A stretch of DNA of 64,000 nucleotides from a virus: IMG/VR virus record IMGVR_UViG_3300025010_000004, positions 32,001-96,000 of that record; one strand, 5' to 3'. The notes under the pieces are model-generated. The model was not told where the DNA came from, did not search any database, and saw only the letters and a list, made by a program, of their open reading frames with translations. Positions 4,249-60,470 of this stretch are shown here, in pieces. Made by a program: the position numbers and the translations under genes. Numbering within the stretch: position 1 is the stretch's first letter; each line of letters begins with the position of its first letter.

Positions 4249-4405
4249 TTGACAAAATCGCAAAAGTGTGGTATAATACAATCTTCGAGCCAAAGCGAAG
4301 AAGATTGCTAATAGGTTGGTTTTAAGGTTTACTGTTTATAGCCTTTTCTTTTACCTTTACCCTGTGTCTACCCCGCCCGAAGGGCGGGAGGCGTTTTAAT
4401 GAGAA
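4249..4405 (+). ncRNA. promoter + GA/GAA hairpin cassette, copy A (putative small antisense-direction RNA)
   Basis: TTGACA-17-TATAAT, then AATCTTC-GAGCCAAAGCGAA-GAAGATT hairpin, then a 47-bp tail identical to 23438-23484. Confidence 0.55.
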
Positions 4406-4628
4406 ATTTATCAATCTTAGCTTTATTCTCAAGTGTATCTATCAAGTCTTCACGGTCTTCTATAATACTACAAAGGTCGTAATTCTCTTCTTCAAGGTCT
4501 TCTATCTCTTCCCTCAACCTATCATTCTCATTTTCATTAAACTTTGAACGTTCATACTCACAAGTAACGCACATACTTCTAGGGCTTAGCTCATGTACTT
4601 CTCTATCGCATTGGTAGCATCGTTTCAT
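4368..4628 (-). CDS. hypothetical Zn-finger/acidic coiled-coil protein
   Basis: Two CxxC, acidic heptads, strong RBS; C-terminus reads into the cassette tail. Confidence 0.65.
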   Translation of the reverse strand: MKRCYQCDREVHELSPRSMCVTCEYERSKFNENENDRLREEIEDLEEENYDLCSIIEDREDLIDTLENKAKIDKFLIKTPPALRAG

Positions 4629-4653
4629 TTTACCTCCTTCGGTAGAACATGTT

Positions 4654-5094
4654 CTACCCTGCCAATAGTTCCTTAGTTATTTTAGCGGCAACCGCTCCGT
4701 CGTATAGACCAGCGTAGTTTTCTTTAAGGAACTTCATAACATCTTTAAGTTCCACCTGGCCCTCTCCAGCGTCACGCGTAACTTTTATGTACTTATGCGC
4801 AAGGGCTGTCAACTCATCTGTGCTAAGCTGCTTAGGAAGATATCCATTCAGGATAGCTATCTCAGCTTCCCTAGCATCAATATACGATTTAACGTCAGGT
4901 AGCCTATCAGAATACCTTATGCACTCGTTAGCATTATTTATAAACTTTTTAACTACGGCCACAAATTCGGCGTCTGAGGGGTTTTTATTTACCTTAGTGG
5001 CCTCACCTATTAGCGTGCCTAATAAGTCCTTTCTGAGGCCATCCTTGGCCCTCAGAGCACCTATTCTGTCAGCCCTAACATCGTCTATTAACAT
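4654..5094 (-). CDS. GatB/YqeY domain protein
   Basis: EAEIAILNGYLPKQLS.DEL, VMKFLKENYAG.YDG. Confidence 0.85.
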   Translation of the reverse strand: MLIDDVRADRIGALRAKDGLRKDLLGTLIGEATKVNKNPSDAEFVAVVKKFINNANECIRYSDRLPDVKSYIDAREAEIAILNGYLPKQLSTDELTALAHKYIKVTRDAGEGQVELKDVMKFLKENYAGLYDGAVAAKITKELLAG

Positions 5095-5492
5095 TACGCA
5101 GCCTCCTTAGGAGGCATACAATTGTCGCATAGGCAATATACCCACCCATCTATGTTTTTAATGCAGTCATATTGTAGCTCTCCACACTTTTCGCAGGTGA
5201 TGCTACACTTTCCCTCAAAAGCCCCCAAAGCAGTCTCAACGCCATACCCTACTTTATCGGGGTAGGTTACGTAGCACCTAGCCTGCCCGAACTTTTCCTT
5301 TATCTGGAAAATTTTAATTTCGTGAGGCCCACCGTTATGTGTGCGTTGCCATTCAAGGCTCTTTAGAAAATCTTCTACGTGCCTGGCCCAGCCTACTCCG
5401 CATTCAATTCCGCGCACAGGTTTACCTTCTTTGTCAGTTTCAAAGAGGTGAATATACTTCTGCTCCAATTCATCGTACCAATGTTTTAGCAT
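5094..5492 (-). CDS. conserved phage protein (QIKEKFG motif, C-terminal Zn ribbon)
   Basis: ECGVGW...QIKEKFGQAR...TCEKCG...LCDNC. Confidence 0.65.
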   Translation of the reverse strand: MLKHWYDELEQKYIHLFETDKEGKPVRGIECGVGWARHVEDFLKSLEWQRTHNGGPHEIKIFQIKEKFGQARCYVTYPDKVGYGVETALGAFEGKCSITCEKCGELQYDCIKNIDGWVYCLCDNCMPPKEAA

Positions 5493-5698
5493 AGTTGTGC
5501 CTCCACTACTGCCCTAGCGCAGTTAATAGCGTCTTTGTGTCTGCCCAGTCTGCTAAGCTCGCCTTTGCGTATCTGCCGTATTAGCATACGCAGGGTATTC
5601 CTAGCATGGTGCTCATTCATGTCACCGACAGCGATAACCTCCATATCCTTAGTTACCCACAGTTCTTCGTCCTTGTAGTTGTTGTCTCTAATTGGCAT
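5486..5698 (-). CDS. hypothetical protein
   Basis: ORF track, strong RBS. Confidence 0.6.
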   Translation of the reverse strand: MPIRDNNYKDEELWVTKDMEVIAVGDMNEHHARNTLRMLIRQIRKGELSRLGRHKDAINCARAVVEAQLC

Positions 5699-5716
5699 TT
5701 TTACCTCCTTGTAGTG

Positions 5717-5950
5717 TTAGCAATTTCCGTCTTCTTTTATTTCGAATTTAACTTTTCTCTGTTCTCCTACGAAGAACCAGTACTCGGTTTGTTCCAGTCT
5801 CCACCTACCAACGGCCTTCTCGACAGACTTGCATCCACAGTTGGGGCAGCAGGCGTATGAATTAGTCCATATAACAGTCCCAAAAGTCCAGTCGCAATTA
5901 GTACACCTATGCCCTATCTCGTAGCGCCCATACTCCACTAGTGTTTTCAT
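5717..5950 (-). CDS. small Zn-ribbon protein
   Basis: CTNC...CPNC. Confidence 0.6.
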   Translation of the reverse strand: MKTLVEYGRYEIGHRCTNCDWTFGTVIWTNSYACCPNCGCKSVEKAVGRWRLEQTEYWFFVGEQRKVKFEIKEDGNC

Positions 5951-23314: not shown

Positions 23315-23484
23315 TTGACAAAATCAACTTTTTGTGGTATAATGCATTCATCGAGCCGTTAGGCGAAGATGAATGCTATAGGGTTTTAAGGTTATGCCTT
23401 GCTGTATGCCTTGCTGTATGCTTTGCTTATGACCTTAACCCTGTGTCTACCCCGCCCGAAGGGCGGGAGGCGTTTTAATGAGAA
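23315..23484 (+). ncRNA. promoter + GA/GAA hairpin cassette, copy B
   Basis: TTGACA-17-TATAAT; GCATTCATC-GAGCCGTTAGGCGAA-GATGAATGC; 47-bp tail identical to copy A. Confidence 0.55.
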
Positions 23485-23497
23485 TGTAGAACATGTT

Positions 23498-43691: not shown

Positions 43692-43766
43692 TGGCGTCCC
43701 TTACAGGATTTGAACCTGTGTCTCTCGCGTGAAAGGCGAGTGTCCTGTCCACTAGACTAAAGGGAC
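43692..43766 (-). tRNA. tRNA-Glu(UUC), CCA encoded
   Basis: GTCCCTT/AGGGAC acceptor, CTCGC-CTTTCAC-GCGAG anticodon arm, GGTTCAAATCC. Confidence 0.92.
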
Positions 43767-43770
43767 GTAT

Positions 43771-44160
43771 CTACGCTGCATCGTCTGGCTCTTCATCCCA
43801 GTACTTTGATATATCGGCTTTCTCTTTTTCGGTGGCGTCAGTAACAGAAAGCAACTTCCTAAGAATTCCGTAGAATTCGTCTGCTTCCTCTGCTACAACT
43901 CCGCCATCTACGTTGTCCAGCCAATAATCTATTGTCTTAAACTCTGCTAGTGTTAGCAGAGGTTTTTGCGCGCCTGTAGAAGATATAGCTTTAAGCGCTC
44001 TATTGTAAGAATCTACCTCTTGCTGAAGTTCCTCTAGGTGTATTGATAACTCTCCAAACCTAACAAACATAGAGTCTCCGTCTTTATCCTTGTGGGACTT
44101 AACTAAGTGCTTGCGTATAAGATCGCGAGACTCTGTAATCCTGGACTCAGACAACTTCAT
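43771..44160 (-). CDS. hypothetical protein
   Basis: ORF track, strong RBS. Confidence 0.6.
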   Translation of the reverse strand: MKLSESRITESRDLIRKHLVKSHKDKDGDSMFVRFGELSIHLEELQQEVDSYNRALKAISSTGAQKPLLTLAEFKTIDYWLDNVDGGVVAEEADEFYGILRKLLSVTDATEKEKADISKYWDEEPDDAA

Positions 44161-44373
44161 TTTACCTCCTGATAGAAAAGAGTTAGTAACCGCTACTTAG
44201 CTTACGAGGGCCTCGGATTTCGCACCCAACCATTAGAAATGGCCTTGTAGTTTGGCGGGCCGGAGCAGGCCCGCATTTATTCAGTTGTATGTTGGTGTAT
44301 GTTAGAGCATTGTTATACACCTCCTTTCTCTATGCCGGAAAGGAGTCCAGCAACTCAAGTGGTAGAACATGTT

Positions 44374-44613
44374 CTACTTACTACAAAACTGCCTAACTGC
44401 ATTAACTACTTTGACGTAGGCGTAGCCTGTGAAGTAATTGTTGGCCACTTCTTTCAGAAACTTCTTGGACGGAGCTGTGGTAACGTCCATCTTTAGGTGC
44501 GCAGACAACGCACTCTTGAATTCTTCATCCGTCATTTTACCATCAACGAACTCTCTCATTATCTGCTTGGTCATTGGTTGACTCATGGCCTTATCCCCAT
44601 GCTCATAAAACAT
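44374..44613 (-). CDS. hypothetical protein
   Basis: ORF track; stop lies inside a palindrome. Confidence 0.5.
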   Translation of the reverse strand: MFYEHGDKAMSQPMTKQIMREFVDGKMTDEEFKSALSAHLKMDVTTAPSKKFLKEVANNYFTGYAYVKVVNAVRQFCSK

Positions 44614-45039
44614 GTTTTTATAGGGGTTACAAAACAGCCCCTAAGCAGCTGACTAACTTTTAATACTCAGCATACGCAGTTTGCAATAGGGTGTCGGCAT
44701 TCAGCACAACAAATTCCCCTGGTTTCATCGACCTTAATCTTTATTGCAACTGGCTTAGGCATATTAACTATAGCCTTAGCAAATTCTTTAATCGACTCCT
44801 TTTTTCTCTTTCGACGTTTCTTTTCTTGCTGGGACATTACGCCCTCCTTTGGGCAATAGGCTACCGCGAAGTATCCTTATTTCGAGTTAACCCTTACCGA
44901 GAAGGTAGCACCGGAGCGAACAACCACAGACGTTGATTTCTTCTTTCCTTTTTCCGCCAGTTGGCAACCTAGCGCCTTTTCCAGCATAGCAACCACTGAT
45001 GTAGCCATGACATTTCCCTCCTTGGATTAATTAAATTAG

Positions 45040-45444
45040 CTACCTCTTAGAGGCAACTTGAATAGTCTTCTTGTCTACTTCTTTACCATCTTCGTCTCTG
45101 ATAACTACGGTTATGTACGTGGAACCGCGTTCCTTGACAGCTACGGTATGCGTCATAGGGACATATTGCTTAATGTGCTTTACAACATCTCCTAGAAGGA
45201 AGAAAGACATTCCATCCATGAAGTAGCTACGACTCGGAACACGCTCAACATCTTCGTGGCCGACGTTTATGATATGATTCCAGTTGCCAGCGGGAATGCT
45301 GTGTACAGGATCATACATATACACTCTTAGATGCTCTTTGGCAACCTCAAGAACCAGGCCAGTACCTCCTATGAGGCTGGTGGAGTAATCGCCATGGTAC
45401 TTTAGGATTCTAACTGCTGATCCTTTCTTAATGTCTGGGTTCAT
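45040..45444 (-). CDS. hypothetical protein
   Basis: ORF track, RBS AAGGAG. Confidence 0.6.
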   Translation of the reverse strand: MNPDIKKGSAVRILKYHGDYSTSLIGGTGLVLEVAKEHLRVYMYDPVHSIPAGNWNHIINVGHEDVERVPSRSYFMDGMSFFLLGDVVKHIKQYVPMTHTVAVKERGSTYITVVIRDEDGKEVDKKTIQVASKR

Positions 45445-45844
45445 GATGTGCTCCTTGCTATTTATTTTTAAGCACCAAAGAACTTTCTTTCCGCTTCTTT
45501 CTGCTTTCTGGCTGACTTACGATCTACCTTGCTCATAACGCCTCCTTAGTCATTGAATGTGTGCCATGATAACCGACCATGCAGAAGGTAGAACATGTTC
45601 TACCTAACTTATGTTGTTTGATTTCATTTTCAAAGCTTCTTGTAGGGACTAAGGTAGCCTTGAAAATAACATCAAAGGTATTTTGGAGGCAGACTATTAG
45701 CGGTCTGCCAGCGCACCAGCGACAACTGGAAACAGTTTTAAGTCATGCTTAGGACTATAGCATTGCGCCGGAGCAGCAGGGGGCTACAGCGGGAAGCATC
45801 CATTTGATCGTTTTCATGGTGATTCCTCCTTTCTTTTGGGTTAA

Positions 45845-46069
45845 TTAACAGTATTTACCATCCAAAGGGATGAATGTGACTATGTTTCTAGCGCCGTCTG
45901 GGATATGTTGAAAGTAATCTTGAAGACAGCACACCCAGGCCTCTTCTGTGGTTTTGCTAATACCATGTCCTGGCGTTCTCCAATATCCTTTATCAGTAAT
46001 GTATATGTGCCCTTTAGTTTCTAAGGGAAGGGCTTTAATTTCTTCTTGGGTTAGTGTTTGAGGTGGCAT
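45845..46069 (-). CDS. hypothetical protein
   Basis: ORF track, RBS AGGAG. Confidence 0.55.
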   Translation of the reverse strand: MPPQTLTQEEIKALPLETKGHIYITDKGYWRTPGHGISKTTEEAWVCCLQDYFQHIPDGARNIVTFIPLDGKYC

Positions 46070-46120
46070 TTAACGTCTCCTAAGATGTAAGAAAGCGAGT
46101 AGAACATGTTCTACCTTTAG

Positions 46121-46310
46121 GGTAACATGTAAGGTAAGGTAACTTACCGTTAATATATCTGTTAACCTTTGAGGTAACATGCAAGGTAACATGCAAGGTA
46201 ATATATCTGTTAACCTTTGAGGTAACATGCAAGGTAACATGCAAGGTAACATGCAAGGTAACATGCAAGGTAACATGCAAGGTAACATGCAAGGTAACAT
46301 GCAAGGTAAC
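46121..46310. repeat. 12-bp tandem repeat GGTAACATGCAA (~10 copies, with a 48-bp higher-order duplication)
   Basis: 7.5 perfect units at 46221-46310, 2 at 46173-46196, and a variant at 46121. Confidence 0.97.
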
Positions 46311-47084
46311 GCACTAACTAACCTATCCGTTAACCTTTAAGGTGATGATTAAGGTAATAACCCCAAATCCTACCGACCCTCGGTTTCCCCAAACATTATA
46401 TAGAATATCAATAATAACAAAGTTTATGGGGGTTATGAAACACTACCTTCACCCAAAACAACCAAAACATAAATCCAATTCTCCCCATACCGCCTTGCCA
46501 TATGTGATTTCAACTACTTAGCAACTACTCTCAAGGTCATTTTCAAGGCCACATTCCAGCAATTTTAGGTGCCTCTATTGCCACCTGGGAGTTGAAACCC
46601 AACCGTCCGGAATGTGACCTTGAAAGTGACCTTGAAGGTTATCTTTTAAAAACCTTCAAGGTCAAGGTAGAACATGTTCTACCCACCGAAAATCAACTCC
46701 ACCTCCGCTAGCGCACAATTAGCCTTTTATCAGGAACTACGATAACCGGCACGATAAGGCCCCGAGCTATAACCCCGTCCTTGAACAGGTTGAATTCATT
46801 TCTGGTATTGGACATAATGCGGTGGATTTTCTCTTTGCCTCTTAGCAGGTCTTTCATTTGCTTCCCTCCTAGGTTTGTGAGGTAGAACATGTTCTACCTT
46901 TTAGTTGTTGGTTTGTTTCTGAAGTAGAGAGTCGATGCGATGCACACAACGGTACACCACGCTAAGAACAATAGCGTTTCTTCTAGGGATGTGAGATGTG
47001 GCATTTGGTAATCCTCCTTATTTTTTAATTAAAGCCGAAGGCGGCTAAATTAAAAAATTATAATGTTCAAATCAAAAATAAAGC

Positions 47085-47200
47085 TTGACAAAATCGCAAA
47101 AGTGTGGTATAATAGAGGCATATCTTGAGTGAAACGAAAGATATGCGGTTATAGGTTTATAAGCCTTTAGGTATGCCTTACCCTAAACCTTAACCTATCT
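47085..47200 (+). ncRNA. promoter + GA/GAA hairpin cassette, copy C
   Basis: Promoter identical to copy A; GCATATCT-TGAGTGAAACGAA-AGATATGC. Confidence 0.5.
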
Positions 47201-47670
47201 ATATTTTCGTGCCGATTCCTGAATGATTCCGAAGGGTTACACAATACACTAATGATTACGGGTATTTATGTGTAGCCTTTATCAGCTTTATTAACCTTCC
47301 AGGCACCTTCAATGTTACCTTGCAATTTATTCAGGCGTAGCCAAGTAATGTGCAAGGTAATGTTGAAGGTAGAAATCAAGTTACTTTCCTTTCAAAGGTA
47401 GAACATGTTCTACCTTCATAGCTTCTGTTTTAAGGCGCAAAAAAGCCGATCTAACGCAATTATAGGTCAGTACCTGGGCATGGATACCCAAGATATGGCT
47501 ATAGTGGTTAGAATCGGCTTGTGGCTTTTTCATAGTTAATTTCCTTATAGCCCTTGTTTCGGCTATTTAGTGTATGTGGTTTATGCTTCAAATTTGACTT
47601 GTAAGGTAATTTGATTAATCACCTTAGCATGAGCTAGAGTAACTAATCAAGTGACCTTACAGGCATGGTT

Positions 47671-47710
47671 AAGGTGCCTGTAAGGTGCCTGTAAGGTGCC
47701 TGTAAGGTGC
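47671..47710. repeat. 11-bp tandem repeat AAGGTGCCTGT x3.6
   Basis: Read directly from the sequence. Confidence 0.9.
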
Positions 47711-47714
47711 ATAT

Positions 47715-47909
47715 TTAGGTGGTCAGGTCGATGTATTGACCACAGTTAGTCAGGCAAAAGTCAAGGTTAACGTGGTCAGGATTAACACCTGCTTTCAATT
47801 CAAAGACTTCATGTGCATAGAGGCACTGGCACTGCATATGCTCATAGTGCGTACATAGCGTACAAACTTTACGTGTACGCGCATTTTCATCGGCGATAAT
47901 TCTAGCCAT
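47715..47909 (-). CDS. small Cys-rich protein
   Basis: MARIIA... after AAGGAG; CTLCTH..C.C. Confidence 0.55.
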   Translation of the reverse strand: MARIIADENARTRKVCTLCTHYEHMQCQCLYAHEVFELKAGVNPDHVNLDFCLTNCGQYIDLTT

Positions 47910-48056
47910 GGTTAATGCTCCTTTGCTACGTTCTTTTCTACGTAGCACGCTCAAATTTAGCTTCTAAAGGCTTTTCTAAAGGTCACTGGTATAGATACTA
48001 GTAACCTTTAGAAAAGCCTTTAGACTGCCATATCGACAGCCTAAAGGCCCTTGTTG

Positions 48057-48770
48057 TTAGCCGTTAACCGCTTCTGCCTCCGGCTTTTCTTCTGCAGGAA
48101 TAGCGCCTTCTTTAGCTTTCAGCTCCCTCTGCTTTTTCTCTTTTTCGGCCTTTTCAGCGTCAAGATCTGGACGCAACGCGTCTGCTATGGCGGTCAATGC
48201 CGGTTTGATTTCTTCCTTCAGCTCCGGTGACAGAAGCGCCGATTCTTCAAGCACTTTCAATGCAGCAAAGACCTTTGCAAGGTTCTTTTCGTGTTCCGTA
48301 GCGATAGGAGCAAAGGCGGGTTTTTTAGCCTTTACTACTTCGCCGGTAGTTTCATCCTTTACCGGCTCGCCGTCTTTCATTAGCACTTCTTCCGTAAAGT
48401 AAAGGTCGGTTATATTCCGGTCGATGTATTGCTGTAAAGCTTTCAGGCCGGAAGCGCGCTTGTTACCGTGCTTTATTGCTGCGGTAGTCCAGCTGTAAAA
48501 CTTTGCCGGATTGTTGGGGTTAACGGTGCGGTGTTCTTCCGGAAAGGTATCATAGATGCGCTGTACGAAAAGCACTGTGTTTGCTTTTCCCGTCGAATAA
48601 TCGGTAGTCATCGGGAAAATCGGTTTAAACATTTCAAACAATTCCTTGCTTCCCTCGTTAATTGCGTCAATCCCCTTGGAGAGGTTAAGCGCCTTTTCTG
48701 ACGCGATTTTCCCCATTTCAATGAGGTTGACTGCCGCTGAACCTACAAGAATTTCCGCTGTGTTTGCCAT
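48057..48770 (-). CDS. hypothetical protein, first gene of the leftward accessory block
   Basis: Strong RBS; lies downstream of palindrome 48828 and the sigma-54 sites. Confidence 0.7.
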   Translation of the reverse strand: MANTAEILVGSAAVNLIEMGKIASEKALNLSKGIDAINEGSKELFEMFKPIFPMTTDYSTGKANTVLFVQRIYDTFPEEHRTVNPNNPAKFYSWTTAAIKHGNKRASGLKALQQYIDRNITDLYFTEEVLMKDGEPVKDETTGEVVKAKKPAFAPIATEHEKNLAKVFAALKVLEESALLSPELKEEIKPALTAIADALRPDLDAEKAEKEKKQRELKAKEGAIPAEEKPEAEAVNG

Positions 48771-48897
48771 GGTGATAACTCCTTTTCTGTTGTCTGCTTT
48801 TGGCAGGGTATTCGCTTCCCGTTATGAGTAGAACATGTTCTACTTGTGGAAAGCTACGTTGTTTTAATGAGGATGCACTAATCCCTTGGTCTTACGT

Positions 48898-49371
48898 TGG
48901 CATGGTTCTTGCATACCAGGGCCTTCATCTGCAAAGGCAGGAATTAGAACAATCTAATGAGAGAGACCGGGCCTAATGCCTTGCGGCATCACGCTATACA
49001 TCACTCATATTGCAGAAGGAGTGCCAGTCTTGTTATGCCTGGCATTTTATTTTTATTACTTAGCAATATAGCATAGTTACAAGGTTACTATAATGTTGTT
49101 ATGCCTGTTATAACATTGGCTATGGGCCTTACTTGCTTAGATAGTAGGCACTATTTTCTGATAATTGTGTAAGTACGTGTAATTGTTACATAATGTGCTG
49201 CCTAATAAATAGACAGCGTTGATTAAATAATAGGCAATATGCAATGAGCGTGCCAATATGTAATGAGTAGAACATTTGAGACTTATGTTGATTGTATGGC
49301 ATGATATATGCATAGTAGCTATAATTGTAATAGTGGTTGGTATGGTATATGCATTAGCATATAGTGTGCCA
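48898..49371. promoter_or_regulatory. cluster of six sigma-54 (-24/-12) sites in both orientations
   Basis: TGGYA-N8-TGCW with exact GG-N10-GC spacing at 48898(+), 49011(-), 49240(-), 49297(+), 49338(+) and 49356(-). Confidence 0.8.
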
Positions 49372-49874
49372 ACGTATAGTCTACTTAATCTATCGACTAA
49401 GTATATTAGCTTATCTTCATTAATACGGTCAGTCCTCATGCCTGTATTATACACTAGAACAGTGTTATAAAGCCAGCGGAGTATCATTATCCTGGCTTAA
49501 TGAGTATACGTGGGGGCGGTGCGCTCATTAGAGCCGTTTTAATGAGAGCTATTTCCCATCCGTTCCACCTGAATAGTTATTTTAAACGTTACATAATTGT
49601 AACAACCAAACATAACCATAAACATTATTTAAGTCACTTTCAATACCACCTTCAAGACTACCTTAAACATCACCATAAAGGTTACCTTTAAGGTTACCTT
49701 AACATCACCTTAACCCGCACCTACCCAGTATTTTACTTAAGGCACCCCAAAGATTACCTTAAATGTTACTTTCAATATCACCACAAACATTACATTAAAC
49801 ATCACCATAAAAGTAACCTTCAAGATCAATTCCTAAAATTTAAAAATAAATACCAAATACTATATAGCCATATA

Positions 49875-49906
49875 AGAAAAGCCTCTCTATAAAATAGAGA
49901 GGCTTC
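49875..49906 (-). terminator. intrinsic terminator ending leftward transcription from 50-60 kb
   Basis: AAGCCTCTCTAT/ATAGAGAGGCTT stem followed by a T-rich run on the minus strand. Confidence 0.75.
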
Positions 49907-50135
49907 CTTCTTCCATAAAAAATTTGGTCAAACGCTATATAACCCTACCATCCATATAGAGTATCGCGTCTAAAACTACAACACCTCTCCCTCAAGCTTC
50001 TTAATCGACTCGTCAAACCTCATAACGTCATCAATCAAGCAATCTACTATGCCATCCAATTCTCCAACCTCATCGTCAAGCTCTTCAAACATCTGCTCAA
50101 GCTTTTCCAACCTACTCAATATGTTTTTAATATTA

Positions 50136-50435
50136 TCATCTGTCAGCATCTATAATCTCCTTTACTTGTTTATACCTGCGTTTAGCCAGCTCATCCAATT
50201 CAGCCTTCTCAACCTCATTAGTCCTAACTTCTTCTTCATATTCAGCAATCTCGTCTTTTATAGTAGGGCACAATAAGCATACCTTCCTATATAGCTTAGC
50301 CCCGCTTTGCACAGACACAGTGCCAAACCCAAACGACTTAGAGTTTCTAACCTTGTCCTTAATTCTAGACTGCCAATCATAGTCAACCACAATCCACTTA
50401 TGAAAACCTAACCTGCATCTTAGGGGCATGTCCAT
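50136..50435 (-). CDS. hypothetical protein (CRLGFHKW motif)
   Basis: ORF track. Confidence 0.55.
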   Translation of the reverse strand: MDMPLRCRLGFHKWIVVDYDWQSRIKDKVRNSKSFGFGTVSVQSGAKLYRKVCLLCPTIKDEIAEYEEEVRTNEVEKAELDELAKRRYKQVKEIIDADR

Positions 50436-50437
50436 AA

Positions 50438-50905
50438 TTACTCTACCTTAAACCTAAAAGGTTCCTTTCCTTGTCTAAACAACCATATTGCCTCAGCCTG
50501 GCAGCAATGACCTTCCTGCCCGAAGAAGTCAGAGAAGCCATTATACTGTTCTATGACTTTTATAAGTTCAGGGTTTCCTTTTAGGTACACCCACCATAGC
50601 ATGTAATAGAATTCTTTCAATAAACTTACCGGCCATTTTTTACCATTAAACATAAAAGCAACTGTGGTCTTTCCTTTAGCTTCCTTCCAATGTAACCCAG
50701 TCTCTAAATTGCCCCAGGCATCTTCAATTACTTTGGCACGCTGGAACCTAGACTCTATTGACTCGCTTAGGATTCCGCTGCCTATGTAGGCGTTAAAAGC
50801 ACTAAATCTCTTATCGCCTCTATTACTACATTCAAGGAATGGCGGTTCTCCAAAGAACTGCATATTATCTATCCCTACTAATATCAGATAGACTTGTTCT
50901 GTCAT
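50438..50905 (-). CDS. NADAR-like protein (DarT1-antitoxin-like)
   Basis: LECS.RGD.RFSAF.A...SIE..FQ.AK...KGK...D.F....CQA; family recalled from memory. Confidence 0.5.
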   Translation of the reverse strand: MTEQVYLILVGIDNMQFFGEPPFLECSNRGDKRFSAFNAYIGSGILSESIESRFQRAKVIEDAWGNLETGLHWKEAKGKTTVAFMFNGKKWPVSLLKEFYYMLWWVYLKGNPELIKVIEQYNGFSDFFGQEGHCCQAEAIWLFRQGKEPFRFKVE

Positions 50906-51215
50906 TTAGACCACACAGCATATTACCTAAGGAATTAATTAATAGCCTATCTGTTTCTTTAAAAAAGGTATGAACATCCTCTATACCCTGTGCATAGTCA
51001 TATATGTCCGGTACGGGCTCCGCCTTAACTTCCTCAGCTTCATACGTAGGAAATATCTCTATGGCCTCTTTAAGGTCACTTTTAACTTCAGTCAAGCAGT
51101 TCTCGCATCTAACAAGATAGTAGAAATCGTACCACCCTGTCTTTGCGTTTATCTTAGCCAACTTGTTTACGTGTGCTCTGCCGTAGCATACAGGGCAAAC
51201 TCTTCGTTTGTTCAT
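50865..51215 (-). CDS. Zn-ribbon hypothetical protein
   Basis: CPVC...CENC. Confidence 0.55.
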   Translation of the reverse strand: MNKRRVCPVCYGRAHVNKLAKINAKTGWYDFYYLVRCENCLTEVKSDLKEAIEIFPTYEAEEVKAEPVPDIYDYAQGIEDVHTFFKETDRLLINSLGNMLCGLNDRTSLSDISRDR

Positions 51216-51319
51216 TGTTCCTCCAATGGTGTATTTAAAGCCTTTTTAGCAGTTTTACACAAAAAATGACGAAAATCGTTTAAAATTCGTCATTTTTTGT
51301 GCGAAACCTTCGGTTTTCT

Positions 51320-51541
51320 TTAATTTTCTTCTGTTTCCTCAGCTTTTTCTTCTTTTTTGCTGTGTTCTTGCGTCTTTTTTATAAGCCATTTGCTCAATAT
51401 ATTCTCTGAAATGCAGTCTATACTCCATTTCAATGCCCTTGTAGATGCCTCTGAAACTCCGTAAGCTATGAATATAGGCAGGCTAAGCAGTAGAATTATA
51501 CAAGCTGTTACATTGGTTAGGACTTTAAACAGCTTGTACAT
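51320..51541 (-). CDS. small membrane protein
   Basis: One TM segment. Confidence 0.5.
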   Translation of the reverse strand: MYKLFKVLTNVTACIILLLSLPIFIAYGVSEASTRALKWSIDCISENILSKWLIKKTQEHSKKEEKAEETEEN

Positions 51542-51542
51542 G

Positions 51543-51920
51543 TTAGCATACCTCTACAATGTAGCAGGTGCTTTCTGGTTTTGTTGGGATGAACAGCTTG
51601 TAGCCTTTAAAGTACCTAAGGCACCTTTCAGCAAACTCTACTGCATCTTCCCATATAGATGCTGGGCATTCATCAGCTTCTGGGCTAAGCGCTCTAACCG
51701 CTGCTAGAGCCAACGCGTAGTCTGGGTCGAATGTGTCCGTTTTGCTACAAAGGGAATATCCAACCCTAATCTGTCCGTCAATTACAGTCCCTAGGAACAT
51801 GCCTACCTTCTGCTCTCTTCCCTGTCTTCGTTTATAAATGTATTGCGTAATGAACATGTGCTTCCTCCTTTTAGTTACTGATATATCTAATAATACTTCC
51901 GTCATATGTGTAATACCCAC
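51543..51920 (-). CDS. hypothetical protein (GYSLC...DTFD...A..RA motif)
   Basis: ORF track; true start is probably MFITQ after AAGGAGG. Confidence 0.6.
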   Translation of the reverse strand: MGITHMTEVLLDISVTKRRKHMFITQYIYKRRQGREQKVGMFLGTVIDGQIRVGYSLCSKTDTFDPDYALALAAVRALSPEADECPASIWEDAVEFAERCLRYFKGYKLFIPTKPESTCYIVEVC

Positions 51921-52179
51921 TACCGTCCCACCGGTTAATAGTTACCCCGGTAGCCAAATCTTCATTCCTATTTAGCATACTCCAAGTTTTCTTTTCTAGT
52001 TGGCCGCATGGGTATACTCGGTAAACAATATCGTTCCTAGTCTTAACTTCGATATAGTCTTTTCCTTCTACAGTGTCTACCGTAATCTTCCCGTCTTTGG
52101 TAACAAACTCCTGTGCCAATACAATCATAGGCGATGTTACGAGTACCGCAATCATTGATATAGCTAGTACTAATTTCAT
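51871..52179 (-). CDS. putative exported protein
   Basis: Signal peptide. Confidence 0.55.
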   Translation of the reverse strand: MKLVLAISMIAVLVTSPMIVLAQEFVTKDGKITVDTVEGKDYIEVKTRNDIVYRVYPCGQLEKKTWSMLNRNEDLATGVTINRWDGSGYYTYDGSIIRYISN

Positions 52180-52575
52180 TTATATTTCTCCTTTTTATTT
52201 TGTGCATGCTTTAACTGCTGCTTCTAGTACACCATCAGCGTCTTTTATTACTGATTGGAATGTAAACTTATAAACTATGTCTTTGCTCCATTTAGGAATT
52301 AACTCTACTAGTTCTTCTACAGGAGACACCCTGATTAGAGTTCCTGTTGGTAGCGCTTTATTTAGTCTTTCTACAAAATCTGCTTCTCTCATGTTATCCT
52401 CTTTAGGAGAAACTGCAAGCTCCTAGGGTTTGAATATCTAAACCTTTAACTCTATTAGGCCAAGGTTTTGTTGCTACTATCTCTTTTAGACTGTCTATTT
52501 CTTTTAGAAGTTCTACCTCAATTTTAAGGTGCTCGATCTCTTTTTCTAGTTGTTTGATTCTTTCTTGGTTAGTCA

Positions 52576-52842
52576 CTATACGCTCCTATAATAAATATGC
52601 CCATATTGCTCAAACTCTTTATCTGTTATACTAATATGGTAGTCAGAGTCTAGCTGAGATTTCACGTTAGCCATAATTCCACCTATATTGCAAGGTATTA
52701 ATTTCCACAAAGTTTTGGTTATGATCGAATTTTTAGAGTAGTGCTCTTGGCATCTAAAGAAGGCTGAAGTTAAGTGTTTTGAAGCCATAGCCAAGTCATG
52801 TGCAGTGGCAAGGTGGTCTTCTAGGGTCATGGGTAGTTTCAT
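52576..52842 (-). CDS. hypothetical protein
   Basis: First gene after the promoter at 52878. Confidence 0.6.
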   Translation of the reverse strand: MKLPMTLEDHLATAHDLAMASKHLTSAFFRCQEHYSKNSIITKTLWKLIPCNIGGIMANVKSQLDSDYHISITDKEFEQYGHIYYRSV

Positions 52843-52877
52843 CGTAAATGTTACCTCCGTTTATTATTTATGCTTGC

Positions 52878-52906
52878 ATTATACCACACTTTAGGTGATT
52901 TGTCAA
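52878..52906 (-). promoter_or_regulatory. sigma-70 promoter
   Basis: AAAATAAAGC-TTGACA-17-TATAAT. Confidence 0.85.
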
Positions 52907-52935
52907 GCTTTATTTTTAATTTTAATGTTACAAAC

Positions 52936-52964
52936 AAAGAGGGCGAGAACTTAATCTCGCCCTC
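52936..52964 (-). terminator. intrinsic terminator after the tRNA-Ser transcript
   Basis: GAGGGCGAGA/TCTCGCCCTC stem followed by TTTGTTT. Confidence 0.7.
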
Positions 52965-53047
52965 CCGGTACTGCCTAGCATTCGAACTCACAAAAAGTGA
53001 AAGGAGGAGAACACCTTTCGCAACCGACTAGCTTAAGCAGTACAATT

Positions 53048-53139
53048 TGGAGGAAGAGCAGGGATTCCAACCCTGAGAGCCTTTCAGCCCAACGCTTTTC
53101 AAGAGCGCGCCCCGCAAAGCCACTGGGGTCAACTCTTCC
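53048..53139 (-). tRNA. tRNA-Ser(UGA), long variable arm, CCA encoded
   Basis: GGAAGAG/CTCTTCC acceptor, GCGCT-CTTGAAA-AGCGT; non-canonical T-loop TTGGAAT. Confidence 0.8.
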
Positions 53140-53157
53140 TTAATTTTAATTGAACAC

Positions 53158-53186
53158 ATTATACCATACTTTTGTTGATTTGTCAA
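53158..53186 (-). promoter_or_regulatory. sigma-70 promoter for tRNA-Ser
   Basis: TTGACA-17-TATAAT. Confidence 0.85.
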
Positions 53187-53203
53187 GCTTTATTTTTAGT
53201 TAT

Positions 53204-54595
53204 TTAAAGAATATTTGCTGCTATCTCTGCCAGCTTGCTTCTTTCAGATTTTGTTAGGGTGATGTGCCCAGCTATTGTTTCGTTTTTAAATTTGTCTACT
53301 ACATACGACAGGCCGTTGCTTGAAGCGTCTAGATACGGTACATCTATTTGTTCGAGGTCGCCCATAATCAAAATTTTAGTCCCTTCTCCTGCCCTAGTTA
53401 TAATAGTTTTAATGGCATGTGGTGTTAACGACTGGGCTTCGTCAATAATTATGTACTGGTTTGGCAGACTTCTTCCTCGAATATGCTCTAGAGAGCCAAG
53501 CTCCAGTATGTTCTGGTCTATGAACTCATGCGCCCAACTTACTTTAGCCCTGTCTTTATTGTCTAGGCTACTAGTGACACTGAACTTCTCGCTCTTACCC
53601 TTTGTCTTAACTTTAGGCACATCATCAGCCTTCTTAGCTTCACCCATAATGAAGTCTATGTTGTCGTAGTAAGATGCCATCCAAGGTGCAAGCTTTTCTT
53701 CCATACTTCCAGGTAGAAATCCTAGTTGGTGTTTGTTGTCCATAGAAATTACAGGCTTTAGTAGTAACACCTTCTTGTACATCTTTTCTACCATCACACT
53801 ATGAAGGCCTGCTGCTAGAGCTACGAGAGTTTTTCCTACCCCGGCCTTTCCTATAATAGTAACCAAACTAATATCTGGGTTCAACAGCAAATCCAAAGCA
53901 AACTGTTGCTCTGAGTTTCTTGGCATCAATCCTAGGGTCTTTAAGTCCTGAGGTAGTAAGTCAAACCGCTTCATAATAGAGTTGTAGGTGACTAAAGCGG
54001 AATGTTTAGGATTGTCCATGCTATACAAAACAAAGCACTGGTTTGGGCTAGGAAAGTCCCCTGTTACAGTTACTAAGGCTTCGTCCAAAGCCCCTAGTGT
54101 ATAAATTGCATCTAGGTTATCTTCTGTTACGTAGGCTTTACCTGTTCCTGTATAAAGGGTGTCTACGTTTACTTTAAGGTTATCGTATTCTTCTGCCTTG
54201 ATTCCTACGCCCTCAGCTTTGATAGCTAGGTTGGAATCGTTTGTTATTAGGATGCCGTTGCATTGAATAGCTACGGCTAATATACGATTGTCTGCTAGGT
54301 CTTCATCTAGGTCAAGAGGCAGTCTGTCTAGAACTCTCCTAAGGGCTACCTCTATTCTTAGAGTCCCTCCACTTTTAAGGTCAACTCCCTCGTTTAGCAT
54401 TCCTAGCTTGCGGCATTCTTTTAGGTTTCTTGCTACCTGCCTAGAGTTTCTTCCTAAATCGCTTTGGTCCTTTTTGTGATTGTCAATCTCCTCTATGACT
54501 GTTATTGGTATGATTACATTATTGTCATCAAACTTAAACATTGCTTCTGGGTCATTCAACAGTACATTAGTGTCAAGGACGTAGGTTTTGGTCAT
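53204..54595 (-). CDS. phoH: PIN-PhoH fusion (PhoH2-like)
   Basis: PIN YVLDTNVL...EEID...DNRIL...TND; PhoH GKAGVGKT, LGFLPG, IRGRS, IIDEAQ, GDLEQID. Confidence 0.93.
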   Translation of the reverse strand: MTKTYVLDTNVLLNDPEAMFKFDDNNVIIPITVIEEIDNHKKDQSDLGRNSRQVARNLKECRKLGMLNEGVDLKSGGTLRIEVALRRVLDRLPLDLDEDLADNRILAVAIQCNGILITNDSNLAIKAEGVGIKAEEYDNLKVNVDTLYTGTGKAYVTEDNLDAIYTLGALDEALVTVTGDFPSPNQCFVLYSMDNPKHSALVTYNSIMKRFDLLPQDLKTLGLMPRNSEQQFALDLLLNPDISLVTIIGKAGVGKTLVALAAGLHSVMVEKMYKKVLLLKPVISMDNKHQLGFLPGSMEEKLAPWMASYYDNIDFIMGEAKKADDVPKVKTKGKSEKFSVTSSLDNKDRAKVSWAHEFIDQNILELGSLEHIRGRSLPNQYIIIDEAQSLTPHAIKTIITRAGEGTKILIMGDLEQIDVPYLDASSNGLSYVVDKFKNETIAGHITLTKSERSKLAEIAANIL

Positions 54596-54718
54596 GTTGG
54601 TTCCTTAGTTAGATTTAGGCTTCCTTGGTTTTCTAGGCTTCTTGGGTGGCTTCATAGGCATCGGAGCCATTCCCGGCATGGGCATTACTACTGGTGACAT
54701 TCTTTACCTCCTTAGTAG

Positions 54719-54913
54719 TTACTTCCAAACGTATGAATTGTCGCTAAGTTTTACACACATTTTGTTTTCGTATACAACTCCTACAGCTTCTTTGTCGCAT
54801 ACAACTGTAGGTTCCTCTGGAAGTAATACCTCCATAACCTCTAGTGTACTGTCTAGAAATGCACAGCTTGGTAGTACAAAGGCAATTAGTAAAATAGGTA
54901 TGTATTTACGCAT
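54719..54913 (-). CDS. small lipoprotein
   Basis: Lipobox LPSC. Confidence 0.6.
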   Translation of the reverse strand: MRKYIPILLIAFVLPSCAFLDSTLEVMEVLLPEEPTVVCDKEAVGVVYENKMCVKLSDNSYVWK

Positions 54914-54929
54914 AGTCTTCCTTTAAAAT

Positions 54930-55005
54930 TGGAGCCTCCTCCCAGATTCAAACTGGGAACCTACTGATTACAAATCAGTTACTCTTTCAATTGAGTTAAG
55001 GAGGC
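54930..55005 (-). tRNA. tRNA-Thr(UGU), CCA encoded
   Basis: GCCTCCT/AGGAGGC acceptor, ACTGA-TTTGTAA-TCAGT. Confidence 0.88.
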
Positions 55006-55009
55006 AATT

Positions 55010-55080
55010 TGGTCAGGTGTGCTGCGTCTAGCAACGGTCTTCCGCTCACAAAGCGGTTGTTCTAGTTGAACTATCACCTG
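55010..55080 (-). tRNA. degenerate tRNA-like gene (Pro-like body, UGU anticodon)
   Basis: CAGGTG/CACCTG-A-CCA, GTTC/GAAC D-stem, CCGC-TTTGTGA-GCGG; T-loop lacks TTC. Confidence 0.5.
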
Positions 55081-55086
55081 TTAGTT

Positions 55087-55171
55087 TGGTGGGAGATACA
55101 GAAATCGAATCTGTACGCCTGTCGGCACGACTTTCTAAAAATCGCATGTCTACCTGTTCCATCAATCTCCC
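55087..55171 (-). tRNA. tRNA-Leu(UAG), CCA encoded
   Basis: GGGAGAT/ATCTCCC acceptor, CGATT-TTTAGAA-AGTCG, variable arm. Confidence 0.88.
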
Positions 55172-55181
55172 AAATATTAAG

Positions 55182-55254
55182 TAGCGGGTACGGGAGTCGA
55201 ACCCGTAAGCAGAAGGTTATGAGCCTTTGCGTTAACCATTACTTACAACCCGCA
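55182..55254 (-). tRNA. tRNA-Met(CAU), initiator-like 1:72 mismatch, no encoded CCA
   Basis: GCGGGT/ACCCGC acceptor, AAGG-CTCATAA-CCTT, GGTTCGACTCC. Confidence 0.82.
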
Positions 55255-58409: not shown

Positions 58410-59745
58410 GCATTCCCTCTATAGCTACAGATTCGTCTTTCATTACTTCCTCAATTACACCTTCGAATTCTTTTGCAGCAAAGTCCCAACTGAACTCAGG
58501 TTTGTTGGCGAAGGCTATTGCCGACTTCGACCAAGCCTCTCTCTTTTTATCATCCCTAATCATATTCTTCATAGCGTTGGCGAAATCCGTAGGCTTTACT
58601 AGAGGACGTTCAAACGGCCCGTGCATTCCACCTAACCAGTATTTTTCTGCGTTAACTAAGAGGCCATTGCCTTTAACCATATCAGTTATACTACCAGCTC
58701 CGTCAACTCCTATCTGTGGTAGTCCACAGGCTGCTGATTCTAAGTGGCAAAGTTCAAACCCTCCGCCTATACAAGTAGAAATAAAGCAATCGGACATTCT
58801 ATATATGTCTGCTATCTCTTCGTTAGTAAGACCTTCAGTGGCTCTGTCTGAACTGTTGTTCGTTATGATTACCTTTCCATTAATTCCAAGCCTGTCTATA
58901 AGTTCTGTTAAGTTCCACCCAACATCAACATTTTTGCAACCCAAGACTAGTACTGAGTTTGGGTATTTCCTTACAACCTCTTTGAATGCCTGCAAGGCTA
59001 GAGGCTGCTGTTTACGAACTGAGTTTCTTCCTACGTATGTAAAAACGAACGCATCCTTGTTAATGTTGAATTTGCTTCTGATTTCAGCTTTGCGTTCAGG
59101 TGAACAGGGGTAGTACGTCGATAGATCAACCCCATGATTTATTGTTTTCATACTTGCTAAAGCCCTACTATAGTTGCCTATATGTAGTTTTATAAACTCC
59201 AGTTGCTTATCTACCCAAGCAGTTTCAGTACTTCTAGATTCTATAAGCTGATGCCCTGCCGCTCTAAGTTTGGTTATCTGTCTGACAAACTCGTTTCGTA
59301 TAGACACAAACCCAAATTCGTGGATAGGTACTATGTAGTTAAACCCAGCCAACATTTTAAGCCAGTTAATAGGAAGAGGCGCCCCGTCTATAGGAACATG
59401 AGTAACTGCCTTAAAAGTATTTCTGAGTTTGATAGGCACTATGGTATTATCGTTTATAAAAGAGTTCATGTGTACGTCCAACAGAGATATTACAACGGCA
59501 GGTTTGTACTCTTCTACGATTGATACAAATTTATCTTCTGAATACTGGTCTTCCCCGCTAGTATATATTTTCCAGTTAGGCTCTTGCTTGTAGCCTTTAC
59601 CTTCTGGATTTCCTAGCCCTAGTTCAGCTATTTCGTATTTATTAGTGGCGCTAAGTCTGTTCAGCAACTCTAAGGATACTTTTCCAAATCCTGAGTTAGA
59701 GGATACTGAGCAGTCAGAGTGCCATAGAATTTTAAGTTTGGACAT
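58402..59745 (-). CDS. GT4-like (GT-B) glycosyltransferase
   Basis: SGFG, INHGVD, VGRN..RK, GGGFEL..LESAACG.P, FSWD. Confidence 0.88.
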   Translation of the reverse strand: MSKLKILWHSDCSVSSNSGFGKVSLELLNRLSATNKYEIAELGLGNPEGKGYKQEPNWKIYTSGEDQYSEDKFVSIVEEYKPAVVISLLDVHMNSFINDNTIVPIKLRNTFKAVTHVPIDGAPLPINWLKMLAGFNYIVPIHEFGFVSIRNEFVRQITKLRAAGHQLIESRSTETAWVDKQLEFIKLHIGNYSRALASMKTINHGVDLSTYYPCSPERKAEIRSKFNINKDAFVFTYVGRNSVRKQQPLALQAFKEVVRKYPNSVLVLGCKNVDVGWNLTELIDRLGINGKVIITNNSSDRATEGLTNEEIADIYRMSDCFISTCIGGGFELCHLESAACGLPQIGVDGAGSITDMVKGNGLLVNAEKYWLGGMHGPFERPLVKPTDFANAMKNMIRDDKKREAWSKSAIAFANKPEFSWDFAAKEFEGVIEEVMKDESVAIEGMHE

Positions 59746-59811
59746 TAAAAGCTTCCTTCATATAGTTTATATACATCAAAGTGGTGGTAAAATATTAAAG
59801 TTATTTTCTAA

Positions 59812-59997
59812 TTACTGTGGAGTATACCCGTCTTTTGCCCAGCCTTTACCTTTGAAAACTACAGCTACAGGGCCTACAGTTGGTTCCATGTCGCTTCCGC
59901 AGGTTGGACATTCGTACGTCCTAGGACTATTATATTTTTTATATACGTCAGTTACAACTTCTCCGCATAATTTGCAACTAAAATCAAGCAACGGCAT
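59812..59997 (-). CDS. FmdB-family Zn-ribbon protein
   Basis: MP..DF.C..CG...CP.CG...FKG.GW. Confidence 0.8.
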   Translation of the reverse strand: MPLLDFSCKLCGEVVTDVYKKYNSPRTYECPTCGSDMEPTVGPVAVVFKGKGWAKDGYTPQ

Positions 59998-60252
59998 TTT
60001 CTATTTCCCCCTGTTCTTACGTCTTGAATCTTTGGCCATCTTGCGCTTGACCTTGGATTTAGCTTTTTTATTCTGAACCTTCTTCTGTGTAATCTCAAGC
60101 TTCTTTAGTTGAGATTTTTTGTAGGCCAGCAAATCAGCCACAACTTTATCGCGGCGGGATACTGCCTCTTCTATTCTAGCTACCTCGTCTACTGAAATTG
60201 ATTCGCCGGGTGAATCTGTCATTTTAAATCCTCCTTGATTTTTAAATAATGC

Positions 60253-60281
60253 ATTATACCATACTTTGCCCAAAAAGTCAA
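60253..60281 (-). promoter_or_regulatory. sigma-70 promoter for the glycosyltransferase operon
   Basis: TTGACT-17-TATAAT. Confidence 0.8.
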
Positions 60282-60339
60282 GTAAAATATTTCAATTTGG
60301 AAAAATAAAAAATTATTTTCACTTTCTGAAAGATTTTAC

Positions 60340-60470
60340 TTGACAAATTTCAATTTCTGTGGTATGATGCATTCATCGAGCCGTTAGGCGAAGATGAATG
60401 CTAAGAGGTTGTCATGGTGTTGACTTTGACTTATGCCTTTATATGCCTCCCCTACCCCTAAACATTATTT
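60340..60470 (+). ncRNA. promoter + GA/GAA hairpin cassette, copy D
   Basis: TTGACA-17-TATGAT; hairpin identical to copy B. Confidence 0.5.

Follow-up and report, generated by a model that had tools for sequence, protein, structure and literature searches.

Four promoter-led hairpin cassettes in an uncultured T5-like phage as a candidate family of short structured RNAs

Large lytic phages are usually annotated as continuous protein genes, and it is against this background that dispersed non-coding units stand out. In T4, ori(uvsY) and ori(34) combine a promoter with an AT-rich unwinding element that forms an R-loop, and are not known to have conserved hairpins. Lambda OOP and other phage cis-antisense RNAs are short transcripts free of open reading frames (ORFs), made from their own constitutive promoter in opposition to the main early transcript, located between early genes or at their ends, and terminated at a hairpin with a U-run. 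The early arm of T5 carries annotated stable RNAs (RNAI, III, IV and others), non-coding and about 100-170 nt long, and T5 has multiple internal origins of replication (PMC3632103). The origin of the lactococcal Ceduovirus phage c2 has tandem promoters PE1 and PE2 and an ORF-free PE1-T transcript between divergent early and late blocks, the structure of this transcript being thought important (PMC7150918). T4-type phages, finally, carry dozens of PeSL promoter-terminator cassettes, in which a stem-loop precedes the promoter and which flank ORFs in the sense orientation (PMC2839356, PMC4122927). Here we describe four units, cassettes c1 to c4, each consisting of a consensus promoter followed directly by a hairpin and by no ORF, in a 64,000-nucleotide stretch of viral DNA (hereafter the window), which corresponds to bases 32001-96000 of the 113,294-bp virus record IMGVR_UViG_3300025010_000004. 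They form a genuine family of promoter-led non-coding units that is under selection and had so far gone unrecorded.

The promoter pattern TTGACA-N12-TGTGGTATAAT occurs with zero mismatches at window positions 4249, 23315, 47085 and 60340, in all cases on the + strand. This is the consensus TTGACA-N17-TATAAT with a TG extension, the -10 box of c4 being TATGAT, so that the hexamers match at 12/12 or 11/12 positions in all four cassettes. The preliminary description of this DNA had reported four rightward sigma-70 promoters, each followed by a hairpin and by no convincing ORF, and it was borne out on both counts: perfect outer stems of 8-9 bp follow the four exact promoter matches, and a Shine-Dalgarno (SD) sequence with a start codon at usable spacing was found 3' of none of them. 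With up to three mismatches allowed, the pattern has 11 matches in the window against 0.23 expected. The seven additional promoters of the same consensus head genes, with leaders of 20-35 nt (once ~100 nt), an SD sequence and an ATG, and lack a hairpin. As such, there are two clean promoter classes, one driving genes without a hairpin and the other carrying a hairpin without an ORF. A regular-expression scan for the hairpin over the whole genome found only the four cassette sites, and a covariance model built from c2 and c4, run unfiltered over the window in line with what the preliminary description had envisaged, likewise returned these four only (56.7, 56.7, 24.5 and 16.1 bits, with noise at or below 13 bits). 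An Rfam counterpart, also envisaged there, failed to appear at either gathering or E-value thresholds: Rfam 15 at gathering threshold recognised only two tRNAs in the window, and E-value mode on c2 gave at best 14 bits against thresholds of 40-80, all matches being snoRNA or miRNA noise.

All parts of the cassettes given here are on the + strand. In c1, the promoter (4249-4277) is positioned back-to-back with the leftward promoter (4166-4138) of a DnaB-like helicase operon, and is followed by hairpin 1 (4279-4307; CAATCTTC-GA-GC(CAAA)GC-GAA-GAAGATTG), by hairpin 2 (4311-4365; AUAGG..AAGGU with ACCUU..CCUGU, including G.U pairs, around a pyrimidine-rich loop) and by a GC-rich hairpin (4366-4402; CCCGCCC-GAA-GGGCGGG, extended by GUCU/AGGC and followed by GUUUUAAU) that is a probable intrinsic terminator. 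Cassette c2 consists of the promoter (23315-23343), hairpin 1 (23344-23376; GCATTCATC-GA-GCC(GTTA)GGC-GAA-GATGAATGC), a hairpin 2 whose loop holds 3.7 copies of the 12-nt tandem repeat TATGCCTTGCTG (23378-23444), and the same GC-rich hairpin with U-run as in c1 (23445-23479); the module that both have in common is 47 nt long and comprises the 7-bp GC hairpin, the 4-bp extension and GUUUUAAU. The promoter of c3 (47085-47113) lies in a stretch of 37 nt identical to the promoter region of c1; its hairpin 1 (47118-47146; GCATATCTT-GA-GT(GAA)AC-GA-AAGATATGC) is 4 nt further from the -10 box, and its hairpin 2 (47147-47209; GGUUAUAGGUUUA / UAAACCUUAACC) is followed by the U-rich UAUCUAUAUUUUCG, making it a possible terminator. 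Back-to-back with a leftward promoter at 60281-60253, the promoter of c4 (60340-60368) is followed by a hairpin 1 identical to that of c2 (60369-60401; 33/33) and by hairpin 2 with a G-poor tail, CCUCCCCUACCCCUAAAC..., without a terminator (60404-60491), which runs into a second promoter (60492-60520) that heads the sigma-like/terminase operon.

The core of hairpin 1 thus consists of GA, a mini-stem of 2-3 bp with a 3-4-nt loop, and GA(A). An earlier reading of this core as a conserved GAG-[mini stem-loop]-CGAA holds as far as the GA/GAA loop is concerned, but for c3 a GA/GA reading, with a mini-stem of 2 bp, is possible. Located 3' of hairpin 1 is YUAUAG(G/A) and then UAAGGUU, which pairs with a downstream ACCUU(A)..., such that hairpin 2 is closed by AAGGU/ACCUU and encloses a pyrimidine-rich loop with GCCUU motifs. 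The T-rich AGGTT...GCCTT...ACC segment noted before is present, but it is not a mere T-rich stretch, as it folds as hairpin 2.

With regard to their placement, c1-c3 are located inside the leftward early arm and are convergent with the early transcript, which agrees with the earlier statement that three of the copies oppose the surrounding leftward genes. Cassette c4 lies in the divergent junction of early and late genes and is not antisense to anything. Only c1 touches a gene in the arm, overlapping the last ~30 nt of ORF 4368-4628; c2 and c3 overlap no coding sequence. The surroundings of c3 are peculiar in their own right: 2.6 kb (45445-48056) are without an ORF of at least 80 aa and are dense in AAGGT/ACCTT words and tandem arrays, namely AGGTAACATGCA in 11.6 copies at 46172-46310, GTAATGTGCAAG in 2.2 copies at 47345-47371 and TAAGGTGCCTG in 3.7 copies at 47670-47710. 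These arrays resemble iterons, and the region could be an origin, a regulatory hub or the physical genome end.

Pattern scans of viral, metagenome and genome collections yielded few related contigs, amounting to about three related genomes, from the sample of G001 and from L161. True relatives are limited to G001, G002, L158, L161, L213 and L226, the other matches being at or below the number expected by chance, and we do not claim a wide cassette family. Of these, G001 is a 105.7-kb genome that is reverse-collinear with the one described here, with 65-72% nucleotide identity in conserved genes. It has four cassettes, A to D, three of which are at positions matching this genome: C, with a plain 7-bp 5' hairpin, is back-to-back with the helicase operon promoter, like c1; B, antisense within the early arm, roughly corresponds to c3 in position; and D, with the hairpin GGGCC-GAA-GGUCU including two G.U pairs, occupies the early/late junction upstream of the late-operon promoter, like c4. 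The remaining cassette, A, forms a back-to-back pair with D and reads into a gene for a GIY-YIG homing endonuclease; A and B both have the GA/GAA core with a 4-bp outer stem. GIY-YIG genes directly adjoin A and C. Promoter and 5' hairpin are retained in A-D, and hairpin 2 in A and C; outside this genome, the latter also occurs in G002 and L213, and among all these copies, c1-c4 included, it is formed via differing 3' partners. UAUAG and UAAGGUUU are present in A-C, of which D has variants only. A terminator-type end, i.e. a GC hairpin or hairpin 2 with a U-run, is absent from c4 and from the G001 copies; in B, C and D there is no terminator, and their tails are G-poor (~90-120 nt with at most three G) and CCCUA-rich, with 41-43% C in B and C. 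Since a relative of such limited identity keeps the units at three of the same places, the role of the cassettes, whatever its nature, is under selection. Moreover, it is a tightly packed genome that retains four units of ~150-250 bp with a perfect promoter and no gene.

The cassettes are mosaics of exchangeable modules. Within this genome, the 37-nt promoter stretch is common to c1 and c3, hairpin 1 to c2 and c4, and the 47-nt 3' module to c1 and c2. The metagenome contig L161 combines the 5' part of c1 with the 3' part of c2, and L213 combines hairpin 1 of G001-D with the middle of A and the tail of C. These arrangements make it clear that the units undergo recombination among themselves, in which the homing endonucleases encoded nearby possibly assist. 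Cassette c2 has no counterpart in G001, where NAMPT is absent as well and the homologous junction is empty; c2 looks inserted.

Covariation in hairpin 1 was assessed by aligning the outer pairs by hand from the core outwards. Because c2 and c4 are identical here, this genome provides three distinct stems, and G001 a fourth. Five of the nine pairs change on both sides: pair 4 is A-T in c1 and T-A in c2/c4 and c3; pair 5 is T-A in c1 and c2/c4 and A-T in c3, both these pairs being absent from G001 A/B; pair 6 is C-G in c1 and c2/c4, T-A in c3 and A-T in G001 A/B; pair 7 is T-A, A-T, C-G and G-C, respectively; and pair 9 is C-G throughout except for T-A in c3. None is broken apart from a distal A.C in c1, and the five purines of the loop are invariant. 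The claim that the outer stem varies with pairing preserved is hereby upheld, also in a homologue, as pairs 6 and 7 of G001 A/B differ from those of this genome with pairing kept, although this covariation rests on only 4-6 independent variants. Predicted folding also differs between strands, at -38.6 (+) versus -32.9 (-) kcal/mol for c1 and -61.7 versus -45.6 kcal/mol for c2, due to G.U pairs in hairpin 2 and the terminator that exist on the + strand only; against shuffled sequences, the c2 fold has z = -3.6. Taken together, covariation and strand-biased folding make a good, though thin, case for what would be a selected + strand structure.

What could such units be for? We tentatively favour, at somewhat less than even confidence, a small family of recombining units, placed antisense within the early arm, from which short structured RNAs would be made strongly and constitutively. 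Promoter motif, hairpins, covariation, lack of ORFs, synteny and mosaic make-up are observed, and from these we infer transcription, the start and end points of the RNA, and its role. Host RNA polymerase would start at the near-perfect sigma-70/sigma-A promoter, and the RNA would open with a small hairpin held by tandem G.A pairs in its GA/GAA loop, proceed through the YUAUAG / UAAGGUUU stretch that closes hairpin 2 with its pyrimidine-rich loop, and end after ~90-125 nt, at the GC hairpin and U-run in c1 and c2 and at hairpin 2 and U-run in c3; the RNA of c4 would be a structured leader. Because c1-c3 are directed against the leftward early arm, they would most probably affect the convergent transcription of early genes and the resulting mRNA: polymerases would interfere with each other, and the cassette RNA would pair with intergenic parts of the polycistronic early message, as in the case of lambda OOP. 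Furthermore, an abundant and stable RNA could act in trans, either through CCUU/CCUCC loops resembling anti-SD sequences or as a protein decoy. If the cassettes do produce RNAs, they would represent an unrecorded family of phage small RNAs with an unusual tandem-G.A 5' hairpin, and a clear multi-copy antisense control in a virulent phage.

The likeness to OOP, taken from sequence alone, lies in short ORF-free units with a constitutive promoter of their own, opposed to the main early transcript, between early genes or at their ends, with a possible end at a hairpin with a U-run in c1-c3. A promoter convergent with the early transcript is found in c1-c3 and in G001 B and C, but not in c4, which is not antisense. 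In contrast to OOP, there are four mosaic paralogues here instead of one, the GA/GAA 5' hairpin and hairpin 2 have no equivalent in OOP, and c2 and c3 overlap no coding sequence. The T5 stable RNAs are comparable in being non-coding, ~100-170 nt long and encoded in the early arm of a T5-type genome, but they are sense within the tRNA cluster, probably processed from long transcripts, and match the cassettes neither in sequence nor in structure.

The canonical start site, the 7th nucleotide after the -10 hexamer, allows the RNA to be weighed against the stem that covaries. The predicted RNAs of c3, G001 C and G001 D begin with their own hairpin, at or near the start, and the hairpin of D with its two G.U pairs begins precisely at the predicted start site, which supports a structured RNA. 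Several observations point the other way. From a canonical start, no more than 3 bp of the outer stem would be transcribed in c1, c2 and c4 (remnants of -2 to -6 kcal/mol), and none in G001 A/B, and yet pairs expected to be untranscribed still covary, namely pair 4 in c1/c2 and pairs 6-7 in G001. Hence either the outer stem is selected in something beyond the cassette's own RNA, or the start site is atypical. In addition, a simple terminator scan calls none of the predicted 3' ends, neither the GC hairpin with GUUUUAAU of c1 and c2 nor hairpin 2 with its U-run in c3; phage targets complementary to the cassettes (10-mers) occur at chance rate; and the 3' two-thirds of the transcript differ between the genomes, with a terminator here and a C-rich tail of 100-200 nt in the relative, so that there is no conserved pairing seed. 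Lastly, nearly all copies in both genomes share one genomic direction regardless of the orientation of nearby genes, an arrangement that a cis-acting DNA element would explain no less well.

The structure-conserved small RNA family put forward in the preliminary description thus gains from the compensatory changes in hairpin 1, the retained hairpin 2, the + strand G.U pairs, the GC hairpin with U-run of c1 and c2, and the absence of hairpins behind gene-driving promoters, but it is at odds with an outer stem that is mostly upstream of the start in c1, c2, c4 and G001 A/B. Covariation upstream of the start hints at a role at the DNA level or on the opposite strand, for which the candidate carriers would be the non-template DNA strand or a cruciform, or the leftward early transcript that crosses c1-c3. 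As DNA, hairpin 1 amounts to -6 to -10 kcal/mol in this genome; in G001 A/B it is marginal (-1.8 kcal/mol). On the - strand, hairpin 1 of c1 with TTGTATTATA is scored as terminator-like, and c2/c4 read AUUAUACC, a poor U-tract. Covariation at untranscribed stem positions is a concrete discriminator between function at the RNA level and at the DNA level.

Among the DNA-level explanations, transcription-activated replication origins, the other function raised in the preliminary description, survive best and are a serious rival, albeit one of low probability. A short cis transcript would here open the DNA or prime its synthesis, and the hairpin on the non-template strand would keep the region open. 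Compensated pairs at untranscribed positions and a GA/GAA loop that is purine-rich only on the non-template strand suit such a role, as does the shared direction of all copies in this genome. So do the positions: ORF-free transcripts at an early/late junction or near replication genes are predicted for c4 and G001-D on the one hand, and on the other for c1 and G001-C, both of which are back-to-back with the promoter of the DnaB-like helicase operon, and c3 lies within the 2.6-kb ORF-free region rich in 11-12-nt tandem arrays. As in the Ceduovirus origin, c4 and G001-D would give a transcript without ORF or ribosome-binding site from the first of two tandem consensus promoters in a divergent early/late gap, but the c2 phage has a single origin, compared to four units here with three antisense in the early arm, and the sequences are not similar (PMC7150918). 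A T5-like terminase is a further point in favour, the multiple internal origins of T5 never having been mapped to sequence (PMC3632103). A specific version, in which the four cassettes are the multiple internal origins of a T5-type phage, and the GA/GAA hairpin of the non-template strand, extending back to the untranscribed discriminator beside the -10 box, locks the promoter open for priming of rightward synthesis or helicase loading, is less probable than origins in general; if origins they are, the cassettes would be the first candidates at sequence level for the multiple T5-type origins seen by electron microscopy.

Like the T4 origins, the cassettes are several dispersed promoter-led non-coding units in one large lytic phage, but they carry conserved hairpins and their downstream RNA is C/U-rich and partly terminated. 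This transcript speaks against an origin. Being G-poor, it would form a pyrimidine-rich RNA on purine-rich DNA, the least stable type of hybrid in nucleic-acid thermodynamics; a terminator-like hairpin ~90 nt downstream in c1 and c2 suggests that it ends after ~120 nt; and no AT-rich unwinding element follows c1 or c2, leaving these without sequence that would favour a persistent hybrid or unwinding. Moreover, GC skew has no inflection at c1-c3, the hairpin of G001 A/B is marginal as DNA at the -1.8 kcal/mol given above, and c2 is part of the NAMPT segment that is lacking in the relative and looks inserted.

Slightly less probable, on a par with the promoter-locking version of the origins, are DNA-level units whose RNA has no function, i.e. 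mobile promoter/palindrome insulators between early units that spread by recombination like PeSLs. By firing convergently, and through the hairpin together with the A/T-rich -10 box, they would stop leftward polymerases. The mosaicism among c1-c4, L161 and L213 and the seemingly inserted c2 are what would be expected of such units, GIY-YIG genes flank G001 A and C, back-to-back promoter pairs occur at c1, c4, G001 C and G001 A/D, and the - strand of c1 was called terminator-like. The - strand after hairpin 1 of c2/c4, however, is the poor U-tract mentioned above, and c2 is separated by no leftward promoter from the genes on its left, the expression of which requires read-through. Insulation furthermore leaves unexplained the invariant GA/GAA purines, YUAUAG/UAAGGUUU, hairpin 2 and the G.U pairs confined to the + strand. 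PeSLs and cassettes have in common a repeated promoter with a stem-loop, mosaic copies that apparently mediate or undergo recombination, and an association with homing endonucleases and variable genes, in places where genes have been gained or lost; but the stem-loop of PeSLs comes before the promoter and in the same orientation as the genes, whereas the cassettes have the promoter first, no ORF, a mostly antisense orientation and only four copies.

A cis-acting leader is more doubtful again. Its 5'-terminal hairpin would either stabilise the RNA against decay that depends on the 5' end or modify RNA polymerase as HK022 put RNA does, and the C-rich, G-poor tails would serve as Rho loading sites or decoys. 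That c4, G001-A and G001-D head operons and do not stand alone argues for this, as do the 5' hairpins of G001 C and D and c3 at or near the predicted start, and tails in G001 with at most three G in 94-117 nt and 41-43% C. Outside the family, a near-identical promoter in Vibrio podophages is followed by a mini-hairpin with GAA and by more than 400 nt of C-rich leader lacking an ORF, and in many phage contigs a consensus promoter is followed after 6-9 nt by a GC hairpin with a GAA loop. Downstream of c1-c3, however, there is only the antisense of early genes, with nothing to stabilise or antiterminate, and Rfam gives no likeness to put, EAR or any other antiterminator RNA. Strand-specific DNA processing sites, be it T5-like nicks or single-strand initiation/primase signals, are very improbable: all copies are on one strand, the terminase is T5-like and T5 DNA is, according to its annotation, nicked on one strand at Pu/GCGC, with the cassettes containing Pu-GCGAAG, but GCGAAG, with genome-wide counts of 16 on one strand and 31 on the other, is not specific to the cassettes and is missing from c3, and such sites would need neither a consensus promoter nor hairpin 2.

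Several known identities were considered for the cassettes and rejected. The hammerhead ribozyme has GA-[G...C stem]-GAA in its domain 2 (G8 A9 / G12 A13 A14 around stem II) and tandem G.A pairs are also the core of kink-turns (K-turns), but the cassettes lack a three-way junction, a CUGA box and a 3-nt bulge. As for the hammerhead, the cassettes have no more than its GA...GAA half, their two arms pair mutually and there is no Rfam match; as for the K-turn, the loop is 2x3 (GA/GAA) or 2x2, and the K-turn register would break the perfect Watson-Crick outer stem. A sarcin-ricin reading of the GA/GAA loop was ruled out on register and missing elements. Small peptides (MPCCMPCCMLCL in c2, MPYPKP in c3) were dismissed since the SD-like AAGG/AGG is just 1-2 nt from the ATG, and since c1 and the G001 copies have no start codon. 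The arms differ entirely between copies, which excludes a palindromic operator for one repressor. AAGGT/ACCTT as a common protein-binding word is enriched around c3 but not in the relative, and an apparent trans target at genome position 19207 is coding sequence.

The phage itself is uncultured and T5-like. Its large terminase is ~30% identical to those of T5-like phages, and the genome encodes tRNA genes, a DnaB-like helicase, a ligase, a CCA-adding enzyme, PhoH and NAMPT. Its genes are laid out in two arms, a leftward early/replication arm running from 92.3 kb down to 14.6 kb of the genome, and a rightward arm from 92.5 kb that starts with a sigma-like gene, followed by the terminase. No DNA-level match to any isolated phage was found. 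The 'direct terminal repeat' of the record (G000 1-127 and 113168-113294) is exactly 127 bp; as this is the overlap size of the assembler, the physical genome ends, or any long T5-style terminal repeat, cannot be read from the record. The type of cassette promoter would fit a Firmicutes host, against which stands a 40-nt stretch over the promoter region that is 90% identical to Vibrio podophage DNA.

Other features of the window lie apart from the cassettes. ARAGORN predicts five leftward tRNA genes (Glu, Ser, Thr, Leu and Met) in 43692-55254, two of which are also called by Rfam at gathering threshold. Within the leftward ORF 42679-43371, a long CGCCGCCCT-type repeat (42744-42925; 9-nt unit, 17.8 copies, with additional periods of 27 and 48 nt) is predicted to encode part of a Gly-rich repetitive protein. 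The 16-bp palindrome GTAGAA-N4-TTCTAC has 27 sites in 2659-48843 (25 exact and two with one mismatch, against 0.17 expected), for example at 23486-23501, 46882-46897 and 47398-47413, mostly at gene junctions of the early arm; G001 instead has a different junction palindrome, ...GGTAATTACC.... Free-standing GIY-YIG homing endonuclease genes with several helix-turn-helix domains are present at 30033-31325 (+) in the window and, in G001, at L134:3645-4682 (+) and L136:11719-13041 (-); insertion is antisense to the early arm for the window gene and for one G001 gene, the second G001 gene being co-oriented with that arm.

Beyond the relatives, the promoter of Vibrio phages 1.208.B and 172P1 (Zobellviridae; L266:400-658 and L267:400-840) is near-identical at 36/40 nt. 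It is followed by a GGAGC-GAA-GCCC mini-hairpin and an ORF-free, C-rich and G-poor leader of more than 400 nt with GTATCCC / CCCUA-like repeats, the whole element being located in a divergent intergenic region of ~965 bp. Promoter, GAA hairpin and C-rich leader may represent a more widespread type of phage element. As for the hairpin of the cassettes, independent examples seem to exist only in L152/L155 (8-bp stem) and, less certainly, in the L143 group and L171. In unrelated phage contigs (L143:10733-10800, also L147, L150, L151 and L156; L152:907-960), TATAAT is followed by stem-GA-GC(GNRA/GAA)GC-GAA-stem; in the L143 group, the 3' arm GAAGAAC recurs in a second hairpin, which would allow an attenuator-like alternative pairing, and a Polynucleobacter-1 RNA is located 250 nt upstream.

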